Assembly: GCA_034408725.1 (NCBI GenBank)
Contig: JAWXCN010000116.1
Span: 1 to 12,309 of the forward strand
Origin: Candidatus Hydrogenedentota bacterium
GTDB lineage: Bacteria; Hydrogenedentota; Hydrogenedentia; Hydrogenedentales; SLHB01
Reading direction: 5' to 3'
Length of the DNA: 12,309 nt
In this document: one piece after another, positions 3,604-12,309 of the stretch
How the letters are laid out: every line of letters begins with the position of its first letter
Numbering within the stretch: the first letter of the stretch is position 1
Program-made: the position numbers and the translations under genes
Notes under the pieces: model-generated
Told to the model about the DNA's origin: nothing
Seen by the model: only the letters and a program-made list of their open reading frames with translations
The model's database searches: none

Positions 3604-3645
3604 GAAACGGGTTCGGTGGCCTGCGGCTCCCGGACCCGTTTCTTT
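3604..3645 (+). terminator. Probable intrinsic terminator after the DUF1326-like gene
   Basis: GAAACGGGTTCGG (3604-3616) pairs with CCGGACCCGTTTC (3630-3642) with one G:U pair; the 3' end runs TTTCTTT. Confidence 0.55.
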
Positions 3646-3700
3646 GAAGAAAATTGCGGCCGGGCTCGTCAGCAATGAATCAAGTGAAAAGGAATTTCCC

Positions 3701-4387
3701 ATGCACCCCACGATGAACACGGGCCGCCTCGCCGGCGCAATCTTGCTCTCCTGTATCGCTGTCAACACATTTGCCGCCGACTTGACCGTAAAAATGGCCG
3801 ATGCGGAACCGCCAACGGAAATCGCCAAGGAATTGCGCGATACCCTATCGAACAAGGCCCTTCAACTCGCGGGCCCAGACGGCACAATCGCCGAATTCTG
3901 GTTCCGCAAGGAGCTTGTGCTGAGCAAAAAACCAGCGACTTCCGAAGAGGCGCTCGAGGCAATGCCCGAGGTTTCGTTTGTCGGCGCGGCAAAATACTCG
4001 AAAGAACGAAATGACTTCCGCGACGACGCCATCGATCCGGGTGTATATACCATGCGCGCCGCGCTTCAACTCAACGACGGCAATCACCTCGGCACCGCGC
4101 CCACGTCGTGGTTCATTCTTCTCGTGCCCCCAAAATATGACACGGCACTTAACGGAATTGATTCCGCGAAAAAGCTGCACGACCGCAGCCGATCCGAAAG
4201 TTCCGCGAACCACCCCTGGTGCATCAACCTGCAACCCGCTCCGGATGCGACTGGCGATTTCCCCAAAACCGGCGAGGTCGATGAGTGGAAGCTGATTTAT
4301 CTGAAACTGCCGGCGACGGTTGAAGGGACCGGAGAGAAGGTGGAAGTGACTTTTGGGTTGGTTTACGAAGGCCACGGCGAGGTTTAG
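3701..4387 (+). CDS. Secreted hypothetical protein, about 228 aa
   Basis: AAAGGA RBS-like sequence before ATG 3701 (alternative ATG 3713). Signal-like GRLAGAILLSCIAVNTFA. Globular body with EFWFRK, NDFRDDAIDPGVYTMR, DGNHLGTAP and NHPWCINL. Confidence 0.8.
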   Translation: MHPTMNTGRLAGAILLSCIAVNTFAADLTVKMADAEPPTEIAKELRDTLSNKALQLAGPDGTIAEFWFRKELVLSKKPATSEEALEAMPEVSFVGAAKYSKERNDFRDDAIDPGVYTMRAALQLNDGNHLGTAPTSWFILLVPPKYDTALNGIDSAKKLHDRSRSESSANHPWCINLQPAPDATGDFPKTGEVDEWKLIYLKLPATVEGTGEKVEVTFGLVYEGHGEV

Positions 4388-4537: not shown

Positions 4538-5725
4538 ATGCCCCACGTTACACTTTACCTCGTGCGCTCGTGCGCTTTCGCCGCCGTGCTGCTACTGGGC
4601 CTCTCCTGTGGGCAGGAGCAGACCGGTTCTCAGGAAATCACGGAAACGCGGACGCTTACGACACCGGCCGAAGCCCCGCCAGCGAACGTCAGTTCCGCGG
4701 AGCGTCTTGGCATGGTCCGGCAACCCGCAGCCAACGCCGCGGCGCAACCGCGATTCTCCTGGACAACGCCCGATGGATGGACCGAACAGCCTGCGACTGC
4801 GATGCGGGCCATTAATGTCCGCCCCGCTGGCGATCCCAATTCTGAATGTTACTTGACGCTGCTGGACGGTGGTGGCGGCGGTCTCGCAGCGAACGTGAAC
4901 CGTTGGCGCGGCCAGATGGGTTTAGGAGCAATTGATGACGCCGCCGTCGCCGCACTTCTGAAGAAGCCTCTTCTCGGCATGGACGCGACCTATGTCGAGG
5001 TCGAGGGCGTCTACGGTGGTATGAGCGGCCAACAGCAACTGCCAGACTACAAGCTCGCCGGGCTTGTCCTGGCGGCGGGCGACATGGCTGTCTTCGTAAA
5101 AATGACGGGGCCGAAGGCGGTAATAGACCAGGAACTCCCAAAATTCTCTACTTTTTGCGACTCGATCGCAATGGCAGGTCCGGCCACTCCCGAATCGCCA
5201 GCGCCAACACAGGCGCCCGCTGCAACCGCGGGCCCAGCAGACGCTGCGATGCCGGCGGACCAACCACAAATTGTTGAGCCAACGCCAACCACGCAGGCCG
5301 GTTCAGGTCTCACGTGGACCGCACCCGCGGGCTGGACGCAGTCGGCGTCACGCCCCATGCGCGAGGTATCGTTCACCATGGGCGCGGAAGGCAAAACGGA
5401 ATGTTACATGTCGAAACTTGGCAACCGCGGCGGCGGTATTGAACCAAATATCAATCGTTGGGCAGGTCAGATGGGACTCGGACCCCTGACTGCCGAAGAA
5501 ATCGCCGCACTGCCCAAGGTTACGGTGCTGGGCAAGGCAAGTCCGCTTGTCGAATTCCGCGGCAATTATACGGACATGAGTGGCGCGTCCTTTGAGGAAT
5601 ACGTCATGCTGGGAACCATCGCCGAGTCGGGTGATGCCGCCATTTTCGTCAAACTGGTGGGGCCCGCGTCTGATGTTGAGGCAGAGAAATCCAACTTCGT
5701 CAGCTTCTGTGAATCATTGAAGTAA
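4538..5725 (+). CDS. Putative lipoprotein with two tandem homologous domains, 395 aa
   Basis: Lipobox-like LLGLS-C24. Two domains of about 138 aa share WTxPxGW...MR...ECY...GGG...N(V/I)NRWxGQMGL...FVKxxGP...FxxFCxS, separated by a Pro/Ala/Thr-rich linker. Confidence 0.88.
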   Translation: MPHVTLYLVRSCAFAAVLLLGLSCGQEQTGSQEITETRTLTTPAEAPPANVSSAERLGMVRQPAANAAAQPRFSWTTPDGWTEQPATAMRAINVRPAGDPNSECYLTLLDGGGGGLAANVNRWRGQMGLGAIDDAAVAALLKKPLLGMDATYVEVEGVYGGMSGQQQLPDYKLAGLVLAAGDMAVFVKMTGPKAVIDQELPKFSTFCDSIAMAGPATPESPAPTQAPAATAGPADAAMPADQPQIVEPTPTTQAGSGLTWTAPAGWTQSASRPMREVSFTMGAEGKTECYMSKLGNRGGGIEPNINRWAGQMGLGPLTAEEIAALPKVTVLGKASPLVEFRGNYTDMSGASFEEYVMLGTIAESGDAAIFVKLVGPASDVEAEKSNFVSFCESLK

Positions 5726-9053: not shown

Positions 9054-9069
9054 GTAATCCTCCGGTAAT
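9054..9069 (+). promoter_or_regulatory. Candidate OmpR/PhoB-family tandem binding site GTAAT-N6-GTAAT
   Basis: GTAAT at 9054-9058 and 9065-9069 (11-bp period), about 80 nt upstream of the first gene of a block that encodes an OmpR-family regulator. Confidence 0.35.
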
Positions 9070-9149
9070 GTTCGTTCGTGCAAACTGCACGGAATCAACT
9101 CCGGCGTTTTACCTCGGTGACCGGTACTGGCCACCGCAAAAGGAGGCCA

Positions 9150-9902
9150 ATGAACATGCGCCCAAAGCTATTCAAACTGGTTCAGGCAGTATGCGCTGCG
9201 TCACTCGTCACATTGGGCGTCTTCGTCCTGCCGGGATGTCCGACTGACACGCCCACCGCGTGCGAGTGTCTGCCGACAGCCTACAATCCAGTCATCGATC
9301 CTGAAAATTTTGTCAAGAACATCGATAATCCCTATTTCCCTCTGGCGCCGGGGACGGTGATGACCTACGAAGCCCAAACTCCCGAAGGAACGGAGGAGAT
9401 CGTCGTAAGGGTGTTGAAAAAGAAAAAAACCGTCCTGGGTGTAACCTGCACCGTCGTGCGCGACACGGTTAAGCTCGAGGGTGAAGTGATTGAAGACACC
9501 TACGACTGGTACGCCCAGGACAAGGACGGTAACGTCTGGTATATGGGTGAGGCGTCGATGGAGTTTGAAAACGACATGGTCGTCAGCACTTTTGGGTCTT
9601 GGGAAGGCGGCGTGGATTGCGCTAAACCAGGCATCATCATGCGCGCGACCCCGAAAATAGGCGAGAGCTACCGGCAGGAGTATTATCCCTGCGTCGCGGA
9701 AGACAAGGCCAAAGTGGTTTCGCAAACGGAGACCGTAACCGTGATATACGATACCTTTGACGATTGCATCGAAACCGAAGAAACCACTCCGCTCGATCCC
9801 GATGTGCTGGAAATGAAATTTTACGCACCCGGAATAGGGCACATTCTTACGCTCGATGACGGCGAACGCGCCGAAGAACTGATAAGTATTACGACTGAAT
9901 AA
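9150..9902 (+). CDS. Putative lipoprotein of unknown function, 250 aa
   Basis: AGGAGG RBS at 9141-9146, ATG 9150 (or 9156). Lipobox VLPG-C. Motifs IDNPYFPLAPG, EDTYDWYAQDKDGNVWYMGE, SWEGGVD, PGIIM, YRQEYY and KFYAPGIG recall a widespread uncharacterised family. Confidence 0.85.
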   Translation: MNMRPKLFKLVQAVCAASLVTLGVFVLPGCPTDTPTACECLPTAYNPVIDPENFVKNIDNPYFPLAPGTVMTYEAQTPEGTEEIVVRVLKKKKTVLGVTCTVVRDTVKLEGEVIEDTYDWYAQDKDGNVWYMGEASMEFENDMVVSTFGSWEGGVDCAKPGIIMRATPKIGESYRQEYYPCVAEDKAKVVSQTETVTVIYDTFDDCIETEETTPLDPDVLEMKFYAPGIGHILTLDDGERAEELISITTE

Positions 9903-9931: not shown

Positions 9932-10684
<753 letters not shown>

Positions 10685-10732
10685 AGCCCGGACTGGCGGC
10701 CGCGTTATGATGGTGTGGCAGAGGCTACATCC

Positions 10733-11407
10733 ATGCGCGTTCTGTTGGTAGAAGATTCGAAGCGCCTGCAGACCTACATTGCGAAAGGTCTGCGGGCCGC
10801 CGGCTGTGTGGTTGACGTCGCAATCGATGGCGAGGAAGGTCTGTGGCTCGCGACCGAAAACGAGTATAACGTCATCATTCTCGATCTTATGCTTCCCAAA
10901 ATGGACGGCATATCGGTTTTGCGGCAACTGCGCGCGCACAAGCGCAAAACCCACGTCCTCATCCTCACCGCAAAGGATACCGTGCCGGACCGCGTCCATG
11001 GTCTGGAGCAAGGCGCCGACGACTATCTCGTCAAACCGTTCGCGTTTGAAGAGCTGCTCGCGCGCACTCAAGCCCTCGCGCGGCGAAGCTACGGAAGAAA
11101 GGATGCGCGCATCGCCATCGGAGATGTAACCATTGACACCACGCGCCGCACCGTATCCCTGAATGAAACGTCGCTCGATCTTCGGCCGCGCGAGTACGCA
11201 TTGCTGGAGTTGCTGGCGCTTCGACAGGGCGAAGTCGTCACGCGCACAGAAATTGAACAGCATATCTACGATGATCTCGCCGAGCCGTCCAGCAACGTCG
11301 TCGACGCGGCCATCTGTATTCTTCGCAAAAAAATCGACGCCCCCACCGGCCCGTCGCTCATCCAGACAAGGCGCGGTATCGGATATGTGCTCGAGGGGCC
11401 GCCATGA
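10733..11407 (+). CDS. OmpR/PhoB-family DNA-binding response regulator, 224 aa
   Basis: GAGG before ATG 10733. MRVLLVED, ILDLMLPKMDG (phospho-acceptor Asp), LILTAKD, GADDYLVKPF, and winged-helix SNVVD...LRKKI...IQTRRGIGY. Confidence 0.96.
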   Translation: MRVLLVEDSKRLQTYIAKGLRAAGCVVDVAIDGEEGLWLATENEYNVIILDLMLPKMDGISVLRQLRAHKRKTHVLILTAKDTVPDRVHGLEQGADDYLVKPFAFEELLARTQALARRSYGRKDARIAIGDVTIDTTRRTVSLNETSLDLRPREYALLELLALRQGEVVTRTEIEQHIYDDLAEPSSNVVDAAICILRKKIDAPTGPSLIQTRRGIGYVLEGPP

Positions 11408-12309
11408 CGCGATCCATACACGGCCGCGTTGCGGCGGGTGTGATGGCGGGCCTTTTCGTGGTGCTTACCCTTTGCGGGTCTGCGCTGTACCTGTATGTGC
11501 GCCACGCGCTCACGGCCAACTTCGACGATGCGCTGGCCGGCAAAGCGCGCGCTTTTGCCGCGCTAAGCAAGCAGGACGAAGAAGAGTATGAGGCAATCGT
11601 CATTGGGCTCGATCAGTTACCGCAGTCCGCGCGTGAAACCGTGCTTCGCGCGCTCGATAGCAGTTCCATCGAGGACCTCGAACAGATCACGCATGAGGGC
11701 CGGCTGTTTTATAAGGTCGAGACCATCCGGCGCGGCGTGGAAAGTGAATTTCTCGTGTCGGGCGATGGCGTATACCTGGGCGTATCCGACGAGTTCGATT
11801 TCGCATTTGACAAGGCGGCATTGCCGGAGTTTCAACCCTCGTCAAAGGCCGAGTATTACCATGTGTGGGACGAAGACAACGATACGGTGGCGAAATCACC
11901 TTCGCTTGGCGAAGCCGCCCTTGCCATTCCCCATGCCGTTGCCACGTCTCCCCGGACCTACAATATCACGCTGCCCGATGGCCGATCGGGCCGGGCCATC
12001 GCTCGACAATTCATCCCGCGTAGCGATGGCCCTGGCGAGAATGAACCGCTTACGCTGGTCATGGCCCAATCACGCGAAGGCCTCGACCAATCGCTGCGCG
12101 TCGTTCGCACGGGTCTGTTGATGGCCGCGGTGCTGACCGCGCTCGCCATCATTGCCGTGGTGCGGCTATCCGTGCATGTCGGGTTGCGCGCGCTCAATAC
12201 TTTGGCGTCGCAAGCGGCAACCATTGATGCGGACACGCTGGCGTATCGTTTTCCGGCGGACGGGATGACGGCTGAACTCGCGCCCATTTGCGAGCGATTA
12301 AATGAATTG
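11404..12309 (+). CDS. Two-component sensor histidine kinase, N-terminal 302 aa (3'-truncated; not in the ORF track)
   Basis: ATG 11404 overlaps the regulator stop (ATGA) and the frame stays open to the window end. MTRSIHGRVAAGVMAGLFVVLTLCGSALYLYV (TM1), extracytoplasmic loop, LLMAAVLTALAIIAVV (TM2), then HAMP-like GLRALNTLASQAATIDADTLAYRFP...AELAPICERLNEL. The HisKA and ATPase domains would lie beyond the window. Confidence 0.88.
   Translation, partial: MTRSIHGRVAAGVMAGLFVVLTLCGSALYLYVRHALTANFDDALAGKARAFAALSKQDEEEYEAIVIGLDQLPQSARETVLRALDSSSIEDLEQITHEGRLFYKVETIRRGVESEFLVSGDGVYLGVSDEFDFAFDKAALPEFQPSSKAEYYHVWDEDNDTVAKSPSLGEAALAIPHAVATSPRTYNITLPDGRSGRAIARQFIPRSDGPGENEPLTLVMAQSREGLDQSLRVVRTGLLMAAVLTALAIIAVVRLSVHVGLRALNTLASQAATIDADTLAYRFPADGMTAELAPICERLNEL

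Follow-up and report, generated by a model that had tools for sequence, protein, structure and literature searches.

What is a domain of a secreted protein doing inside the sensor of the kinase encoded beside it? The question is raised by the last genes of a 12,309-base contig of a Candidatus Hydrogenedentota bacterium (JAWXCN010000116.1, from a draft genome of 5.17 Mb). The entire contig was analysed and is referred to here as the window. Its four last genes, all on the + strand, encode a predicted lipoprotein (gene X), a secreted acidic protein (the accessory protein), a response regulator and a sensor histidine kinase. A preliminary description of this DNA had pointed to a segment of the kinase that resembles the first repeat, R1, of the accessory protein, and had taken it for a PepSY-like domain captured locally and inserted in the sensing loop. 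The anatomy and history of the segment are now well supported: it is a nested domain of old origin, it is conserved, and it is constantly linked to an accessory gene. The features on which the comparison turns are as follows.

11404..12309, + strand: sensor histidine kinase, first 302 residues (to the contig end), with first transmembrane helix (TM1), periplasmic sensor, second transmembrane helix (TM2) and the start of HAMP
11503..11589, + strand: helix that opens the periplasmic part of the PDC-type sensor (residues 34-62 approximately); its last, acidic residues, QDEEEYE, directly precede the insert
11590..11790, + strand: nested PepSY-like domain of the kinase, residues 63-129 as delimited by the structure model; core residues 69-126 at 11608-11781
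11791..12090, + strand: remainder of the PDC-type sensor fold, about residues 130-229 (2CSK_N at 132-229; CusS/PhoQ match)
9932..10684, + strand: accessory protein, secreted and acidic, 250 amino acids (aa), with signal peptide, R1, acidic linker, R2, R3 and poly-Asp tail
10031..10204, + strand: R1 (residues 34-91 of the accessory protein), which corresponds, as a free unit, to the insert of the kinase

The kinase segment and the sensor fold

The coordinates and translations given earlier are exact: 11608-11781 encodes kinase residues 69-126, and 10031-10204 encodes residues 34-91 of the accessory protein. The gapless alignment of the two, with 25 of 58 positions identical, was reproduced with BLASTP (33/58 positives, E 3e-15). 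Shuffling the residues 20,000 times gave 4.2 identities on average and never more than 13. The kinase copy is also, as had been claimed, nearer to R1 (43% identity) than the repeats of the accessory protein are to each other (R1-R2 22%, R1-R3 37%, R2-R3 19%), and the same ranking holds in three other genomes having both genes.

The suggestion that the segment is an insertion in a PDC-type sensor held up as well. The Pfam 2CSK_N match of the window kinase (32.8 bits, cut-off 23.2) is split, with its best stretch, residues 132-229, corresponding to profile positions 47-135. Of 15 aligned kinases, 8 have about 70 additional residues (roughly 56-129), as do 10 of the 21 rows of a second alignment in which one sequence occurs twice. 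Kinases without the insert run directly from the first periplasmic helix into the 'EFxF...LPEF' region. The segment is thus not an integral part of all related sensors, since related kinases exist without it. The 2CSK_N profile matches all nine insert-bearing kinases scanned.

At this point (kinase residues 55-63, 11566-11592), just after the first periplasmic helix, insert-bearing and insert-free relatives alike have a loop of acidic, low-complexity sequence. It is seen at loci L023, L029, L028, L039 and L040, and in protein P0012 about 35 Asp/Glu/Asn residues directly precede the PepSY-like domain.

The kinase fragment was modelled with AlphaFold2 from a 29-row alignment, with a predicted local distance difference test (pLDDT) score of 91.5 and a predicted template modelling score of 0.77. 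The model has long helices at residues 5-53 and 225-272, with a compact unit (63-129) between them that is followed by the remaining sensor strands. The compact unit consists of a strand (64-66), a helix (74-84) and strands at 88-97, 100-109, 112-119 and 124-127, in blocks with pLDDT of at least 90. In an exhaustive comparison of the model against solved structures, PepSY_like/BLIP-like proteins took the top ranks for residues 63-129: 4fr9_A (Z 9.5, root-mean-square deviation (rmsd) 1.5 Å, 66 residues), 4hbr_A (Z 9.2, 1.7 Å, 67 residues) and 3u1w_A (Z 7.9, 1.6 Å, 68 residues, 24% identity). Free R1 matches 4hbr_A (Z 9.3), 4fr9_A (9.2), 3u1w_A (7.7) and 4exr_A (7.2). The sensor remainder, spanning the insert, aligns with the sensors of CusS (5ku5_A, Z 8.5, 125 residues) and PhoQ (1yax_A, Z 8.7, 103 residues), and also with other PDC or Cache sensors. 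It should be noted that a Z of about 8 may reflect a common arrangement; the PepSY-like assignment is firm because the rmsd is low, the whole domain is covered and the sequence connects it with R1. In the modelled fold, the segment is a complete R1-type PepSY-like domain nested in a CusS/PhoQ-type PDC sensor, after the first helix and an acidic loop.

With one helix on a four-stranded sheet, the unit resembles PepSY (PF03413) and the Bacteroides PepSY_like/BLIP-like proteins (4fr9, 4hbr, 3u1w; PF11396), on whose structures it superposes with rmsd 1.5-1.7 Å over 66-68 residues. The Bacteroides units are free proteins or tandem secreted units, whereas here the unit is nested in another domain, that of a kinase, and unlike members of the two Pfam families it falls under the Pfam cut-offs in most insert-bearing kinases. 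A Pfam scan of the whole window kinase gave no PepSY match, and the insert alone gave PepSY at E 0.041 (14.6 bits, below the cut-off of 24). At E ≤0.01, the nine insert-bearing kinases yield two matches to PepSY (best E 5e-6) and one to PepSY_like. Thus the scan with profile hidden Markov models that had been proposed leaves the insert under the family cut-off, and the PepSY-like identity stands by fold and by homology: the insert aligns without gaps, at the 43% identity given above, with R1, part of a protein that exceeds both cut-offs (PepSY_like 32.0 bits, cut-off 28.3; PepSY 30.9 bits, cut-off 24).

The window kinase otherwise agrees with CusS and PhoQ in its 2CSK_N match above cut-off, in the superposition of the model and in the series TM1, sensor, TM2, HAMP, HisKA and HATPase_c, the last three being present in full-length relatives of 539-575 aa. 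It differs from them in having 67 residues more, a domain that separates the first helix from the first strand region. TIGR01386, the profile of heavy-metal sensor kinases (cut-off 292.55 bits), gives 39.6 bits for the window fragment, 172.2 bits for the full-length relative P0006 and 203.3 bits for the non-insert relative of genome G100, the matches in the latter two covering only the part from TM2 onward.

Distribution and history of the domain copies

A relative of the kinase (E ≤1e-20) is encoded in 14 of the phylum's 135 genomes. The match covers the insert in four of these (the window's own, G032, G116 and G114) and starts after it in the other ten. The four other genomes of the window's genus have no match at this threshold, except for a distant non-insert kinase in G001. 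Database searches added further insert-bearing kinases of 539-575 residues (P0007, P0009-P0012, P0175, P0177 and P0178) and two N-terminal fragments with the insert (P0049, P0071), bringing the total to about 12 distinct kinases and 2 fragments, all of one family. Every named record among them is Candidatus Hydrogenedentota, and when 185,579 species genomes were scanned for an insert motif, the only records found were from Hydrogenedentota. Two word-based searches for the insert in other kinase families found only further members of the insert-bearing family. The protein Atlas, which does not contain small clusters, showed ordinary 2CSK_N/CusS clusters.

A profile of four inserts was compared with 1.84 billion representative proteins and gave 1616 matches at E ≤0.001, the best 150 of which were visible. 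Nearly all of these 150 are secreted proteins with 2 to 13 tandem copies of an R1-like unit. No kinase core is present among them, the insert-bearing family being represented by two N-terminal fragments only. The R1-like unit builds a large family of secreted tandem-repeat proteins (P0024-P0173, with 2 to 13 units), including one of 2342 residues with 13 matched stretches and some that carry a C-terminal membrane anchor (P0040).

The order accessory gene, regulator gene, kinase gene is found in all five insert loci whose flanking DNA is long enough to show it. It is found also in the non-insert genomes G100, G092, G044 and G080. G100 and G092, which have the closest non-insert kinases, encode a full R1-R2-R3 accessory protein, and in G044 and G080 an R2-R3 protein is encoded beside the kinase. 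No accessory gene was found in the stretches fetched from the non-insert genomes G028, G064, G037, G059 and G060; the G045 locus is cut by a contig end.

From the 150 visible matches 612 units were cut, and about 640 units entered a BLAST comparison. For eight of nine kinase copies the best non-kinase match was an R1 unit, either from the operon accessory proteins or from P0124 and P0143, which have the same build of R1, acidic linker, R2 and R3. Proteins with R1, R2 and R3, these two and also P0165 and P0152, are known from other phyla too. Clustering with unrelated PepSY domains, which had been named as an outcome that would speak against capture, was looked for and is not what this comparison shows for those eight copies. 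Mean identities of the kinase copies are 37% with R1, 22.5% with R2 and 26.4% with R3; among themselves they average 44% (n=9, range 31-60%), with 16 invariant columns among four sequences. A weakly resolved tree of 32 units and 58 columns has separate R2 (93/85) and R3 (100/98) groups and places the kinase copies among the R1 units, eight of the nine together (91/94). Approximately unbiased (AU) tests reject neither a single clade of all kinase copies (p 0.286) nor one of kinase copies and R1 (p 0.11). A quick tree of 106 units joins the kinase copies to two R1 units and keeps 49 of 60 generic units outside that group. No PepSY genes that might serve as outgroups were found besides R1 in the whole genome (Pfam PepSY).

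The proposal of a local domain capture is upheld in one part: the kinase copy is of the same type as the neighbour's R1. It is not, however, a copy taken from the present neighbour. The AU test rejects (p 0.0046) a sister pairing of the window kinase copy with the R1 encoded next to it, the pairing for which the preliminary description had proposed a test, and the kinase copies of different genomes group together. Among 374-393 units, the own neighbour's R1 ranked 2, 42, 18 and 14 for four kinase copies. The DNA of the two window copies is identical at 94 of 174 positions (54%), and third codon positions, equal at 21 of 58, are saturated. The rejected sistership, together with this saturation, indicates one old event and not a recent local duplication. 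In our reading of the sequences, an R1-type unit was probably acquired once, long ago, in a variable acidic loop of the ancestor of a small kinase group; the transfer may have gone in either direction. Both genes were then inherited together, and zero to two later losses of the insert may have followed.

A kinase tree built without the insert columns unites the nine insert-bearing kinases with those of G100 and G092 (91/84), the order inside this group not being resolved. In a quick kinase tree the insert-bearing rows form one group with a support of 39. A profile of the nine kinase copies found no remnant of the insert at the site in G100 and G092 (best E >3, elsewhere in the proteins). The short extra loops of these two kinases are acidic low-complexity sequence of a kind found in more distant relatives too.

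The operon and related modules

The remaining features of the module are listed here.

9054..9069, + strand: direct-repeat box GTAATCCTCCGGTAAT (GTAAT-N6-GTAAT), predicted site of an OmpR-family regulator, about 80 nt upstream of the module's first gene (X)
9150..9902, + strand: gene X, predicted lipoprotein, signal ending in LPGC; the mechanical open reading frame (ORF) begins at 9078, and the ATG at 9150 follows AAGGAGG
10271..10450, + strand: R2 of the accessory protein, residues 114-173, a group of its own in the unit tree
10466..10624, + strand: R3 of the accessory protein, residues 179-231, also its own group, followed by the poly-Asp tail to 10681
10715..11407, + strand: response regulator of the OmpR/PhoB family, 230 aa, whose gene shares 4 bases with the start of the kinase gene

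The accessory protein was modelled (pLDDT 80.3) as three helix-plus-sheet units, in which a disordered acidic linker (residues 95-104, pLDDT <50) parts R1 from a contiguous R2-R3 pair. Its C-terminus (10625-10681) carries a run of 17 Asp/Glu, DDDEDDDDDDDDDDDDD, and then EN. Relatives have shorter acidic tails, some of them His/Asp-rich (P0143, P0152). The response regulator shows Response_reg (99.8 bits) and Trans_reg_C (75.7 bits) domains, and its top NCBIfam match is TIGR01387 with 238.7 bits, under the cut-off of 279.2.

The box GTAAT-N6-GTAAT occurs once in the window (0.01 expected), and this is its sole occurrence in the 5.17-Mb genome. All five insert loci, as well as G100, have an exact copy ahead of the module, and G092 has one with a single mismatch. 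Outside the window, the repeat (consensus about GTAATCTTCCGGTAAT) was located at L020:2287, L021:4691(-), L022:5815(-), L037:3341 and L023:4813(-). The box is present in most other related loci, and in non-insert relatives a second copy is sometimes found just downstream of the kinase gene. It is probably the binding site of the regulator. Its conserved upstream position would fit autoregulation, and the four-gene module is probably autoregulated.

In non-insert relatives the box also precedes genes for an ArnT/PMT_2-type glycosyltransferase, a LAB_N (lipid A biosynthesis N-terminal) protein and membrane metallophosphoesterases (L043:3360-4073, L043:6327-8207, L024:7058-7999 and L033:364-1557(-)). 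These boxed genes hint that the kinase family may control the modification of lipid A or remodelling of the envelope. PmrAB- and BqsRS-type systems are known to control envelope remodelling.

For gene X, Pfam returned nothing up to an E of 5, and a sequence search brought up no relative of solved structure. In the protein Atlas gene X falls with unnamed, widespread lipoprotein clusters only, DUF3108_like being a weak lead. Homologues of gene X adjoin the module in G032, G114, G092, G080 and three metagenome loci. Gene X precedes the accessory gene in 3 of 5 insert loci, lies downstream of the kinase gene in G080 and L038, and in G001 an X-like domain is fused behind an R1 unit (L026:3724-4878(-)).

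Modules of a PepSY protein and a two-component system are already known; the embedding of a partner-type domain in the kinase was not found in print. In agreement with the earlier statement, no characterised kinase of this architecture turned up in the literature, subscription journals and InterPro architectures lying outside that search. The closest parallel is DbfQRS. As described in passages of PMC12714742, DbfQ is a secreted single-PepSY protein encoded upstream of dbfRS, which binds the DbfS sensor domain (dissociation constant 30 nM, 1:1) and drives DbfS to phosphatase activity. The same passages report neighbourhoods of PepSY-protein and two-component genes as more than 60-fold enriched across phyla. 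The survey took proteins with a PepSY domain alone, so kinase-borne copies could not appear in it. The bqs operon, according to sections of PMC4358008, begins with bqsP and is activated through the BqsR box TTAAG-N6-TTAAG.

The window has the layout of DbfQRS and BqsPQRS on one strand (9932-10684, 10715-11407 and 11404 onward): the gene of a secreted PepSY-type protein directly upstream of those of an OmpR-type regulator and a membrane kinase, the kinase having a small periplasmic sensor between two membrane helices. As in bqsPQRS, the operon is preceded by two direct 5-bp repeats spaced 6 bp apart (TTAAG-N6-TTAAG in bqsPQRS, GTAAT-N6-GTAAT in the window). DbfQ has a single PepSY domain, whereas the accessory protein has three units, acidic linkers and a poly-Asp tail. 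DbfS and BqsS are not described as carrying a PepSY domain, and are set apart here by their descriptions. Binding, signal and output were measured for DbfQRS; for the window's module they are inferred. The RExxE iron motif of BqsS was not noticed by eye in the window sensor, no systematic search for it having been made.

Other PepSY proteins offer more distant parallels. Portions of PMC9988556 describe the acidic two-PepSY protein LanP, which binds lanthanides, and cite UipA as a uranyl- and iron-binding PepSY protein. Like the accessory protein, these are small, secreted or membrane-anchored, strongly acidic proteins of PepSY units with Glu/Asp-lined sheets. They have two units and bind metals, whereas the accessory protein has three and is known from sequence, and a kinase-borne copy is described for neither in those portions. 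In Bacillus subtilis, extracytoplasmic PepSY-related accessory proteins, YycH and YycI, control WalK, a kinase of the same operon; unlike the protein studied here they are membrane-anchored, act via membrane helices and belong to a Gram-positive organism, and no domain common to kinase and accessory protein is described in the relevant passages of PMC4282423. According to the same passages, which cite Das 2010, PepSY/BLIP-type folds have been proposed as binders of partner domains, in cis or trans. In PMC10434189, PepSY genes occur in expression tables only.

Upstream of the module the window encodes ResB-like and CcsA-like cytochrome c assembly proteins, a DUF1326 protein and molybdenum hydroxylase subunits. 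Two ORFs between the DUF1326 and ResB-like genes (3644-4387, 247 residues; 4538-5725, 395 residues) match no Pfam family, and no homologue of either turned up among the related loci retrieved. The module is found also in the metagenome contig L036, whose matched part is 100% identical; L036 and the window contig stop at the same base, so L036 cannot supply the missing part of the kinase gene.

Possible roles of the nested domain

The remark that several acidic positions of R1 are neutral or basic in the kinase copy proved real and conserved when nine kinase copies were compared with six R1 units.

Position 95: I/V in 7/9 kinase copies; E in 5/6 free R1 units
Position 97: R/K/H in 8/9 kinase copies; E in 6/6 free R1 units
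Position 104: K in 7/9 kinase copies; E/D in 6/6 free R1 units
Position 109: R in 8/9 kinase copies; variable in free R1 units
Position 117: L in 8/9 kinase copies; Q in 4/6 free R1 units

Mean net charges are alike (-5.1 for kinase copies, -6.1 for R1), and E93, E106, E113 and E115 are common to both. Judged by the alternation of residues along the strands, the switched positions would be on the side of the sheet opposite the helix. The switches at 95, 97 and 104 would fit a contact surface complementary to R1 better than a second cation site.

With little more than even confidence, we regard the operon as an envelope-signalling module related to DbfQRS and BqsPQRS, in which the nested domain would couple the kinase with the acidic accessory protein. 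The binding of DbfQ to DbfS gives a precedent for the docking of accessory protein and kinase. By analogy with that model system, the free PepSY protein would bind the kinase sensor and set the balance between kinase and phosphatase activity. The built-in copy would be a tethered module of the partner type, offering a coupling surface to the accessory protein. The latter, acidic and probably loaded with cations, would couple to the kinase above all via its loosely tethered R1. Coupling could take the form of a pairing of like domains, or of competition with the cis copy for the PDC core, and the input is likely to be a periplasmic cation or charge stress on the envelope.

A more specific form of this coupling is possible, but we hold it as tentative and rather doubtful. 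Here the kinase would have internalised its partner's domain as a tethered pseudo-partner, and the ratio of free to tethered domain would set the kinase/phosphatase balance. The cis copy would occupy or mimic the docking site, and cation-loaded free R1 would compete or pair with it. If this is true, a two-component sensor evolved by internalising an accessory protein, and the changes from E to R/K at positions 97 and 104 record the conversion of a ligand site into an interface.

The main rival to coupling by contact is the arrangement of receptor and decoy that was among those first suggested, and which we judge unlikely though worth serious attention. One small ligand, most likely a metal cation, would be bound by both the kinase copy and free R1; the two-component system would induce the acidic secreted protein, which would soak up the ligand and turn the kinase down, a titration feedback without protein contact. 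The accessory gene stands behind the conserved regulator box and so is probably induced by the system, and this box supports placing the secreted protein under feedback control. The extreme acidity of the accessory protein, with its acidic linkers and poly-Asp tail, the four glutamates shared by the two copies and the acidic loops found, in the kinase and in its relatives, at the point of insertion are also consistent with this arrangement, as is the binding of lanthanides, uranyl and iron by acidic PepSY proteins reported in portions of PMC9988556. However, the glutamates of R1 at 95, 97 and 104 have become I/V, R/K/H and K in the kinase, so that the putative site differs. In addition, non-insert kinases keep the accessory protein, and a kinase-borne copy is thus not needed for its action. 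The studied member of such modules acts by direct binding, according to passages of PMC12714742.

It is improbable, in our estimate, that the insert is an independent second sensing module with a signal of its own, forming a two-lobed sensor of the double-Cache kind and having only common descent with the neighbour. The domain is well ordered and conserved (16 invariant columns among four sequences, mean identity 44% among nine), and the best Foldseek matches of the whole model are two-module sensors, namely tandem PAS and dCache-type chemoreceptor sensors (9 at E ≤0.001, best 5.7e-5). These alignments, however, have rmsd of 8-15 Å and low template modelling scores, the likeness to dCache being only in the general layout, and an accessory gene bearing R1 is kept in 5 of 5 insert loci with context. 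A tolerated passenger, a domain that landed in a loop and serves as a spacer without a role in signalling, is more improbable still. The site is indeed a variable low-complexity acidic loop in relatives, and the close relatives in G100 and G092 presumably function without an insert. Against such a passenger stand the retention of the domain in at least 12 diverged kinases (31-60% identity) with conserved residues peculiar to the kinase copies, such as R109 in 8/9, K104 in 7/9 and L117 in 8/9, the saturation of third codon positions while the protein is conserved, and a fold predicted with high confidence.

Several observations weigh against the coupling module and the single old acquisition as set out here. 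The contact between accessory protein and kinase, and the nature of the signal, are argued from analogy. A complex prediction for kinase residues 34-232 and accessory residues 30-232, run without controls, scored 0.00 against a mark of 0.32 and is evidence in neither direction. The insert is poorly recognised by Pfam. The outward orientation of the switched residues follows from strand alternation alone, and E93, E106, E113 and E115, present in both copies, may form a shared cation site. The top match of the G114 kinase copy is a unit of a generic four-repeat protein. Kinase copies and R1 do not form a clade in the best tree (p 0.11, not rejected; 58 columns only), and in the 106-unit tree the grouping of kinase copies with two R1 units has a value of only 80 in the Shimodaira-Hasegawa-like approximate likelihood ratio test. 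In the kinase tree without the insert columns, the insert-bearing rows form one group in only 10% of bootstrap trees, with the long-branch G092 pairing with an insert-bearing row, and it is possible that the insert was gained once and later lost, or that its origin is older.

Communication between a periplasmic accessory protein and a kinase is known for few systems, and direct binding was tied to the PepSY module only in 2025. The practical weight of the present case is modest, the organisms being uncultured. Surveys based on Pfam overlook this build, two of nine inserts being recognised as PepSY, and nested domains of the accessory type in sensors may be under-counted. The insert-bearing kinases, standing beside insert-free relatives with the same accessory protein, provide a natural comparison for the action of PepSY domains on a PDC sensor, and such a comparison could show whether like domains pair.

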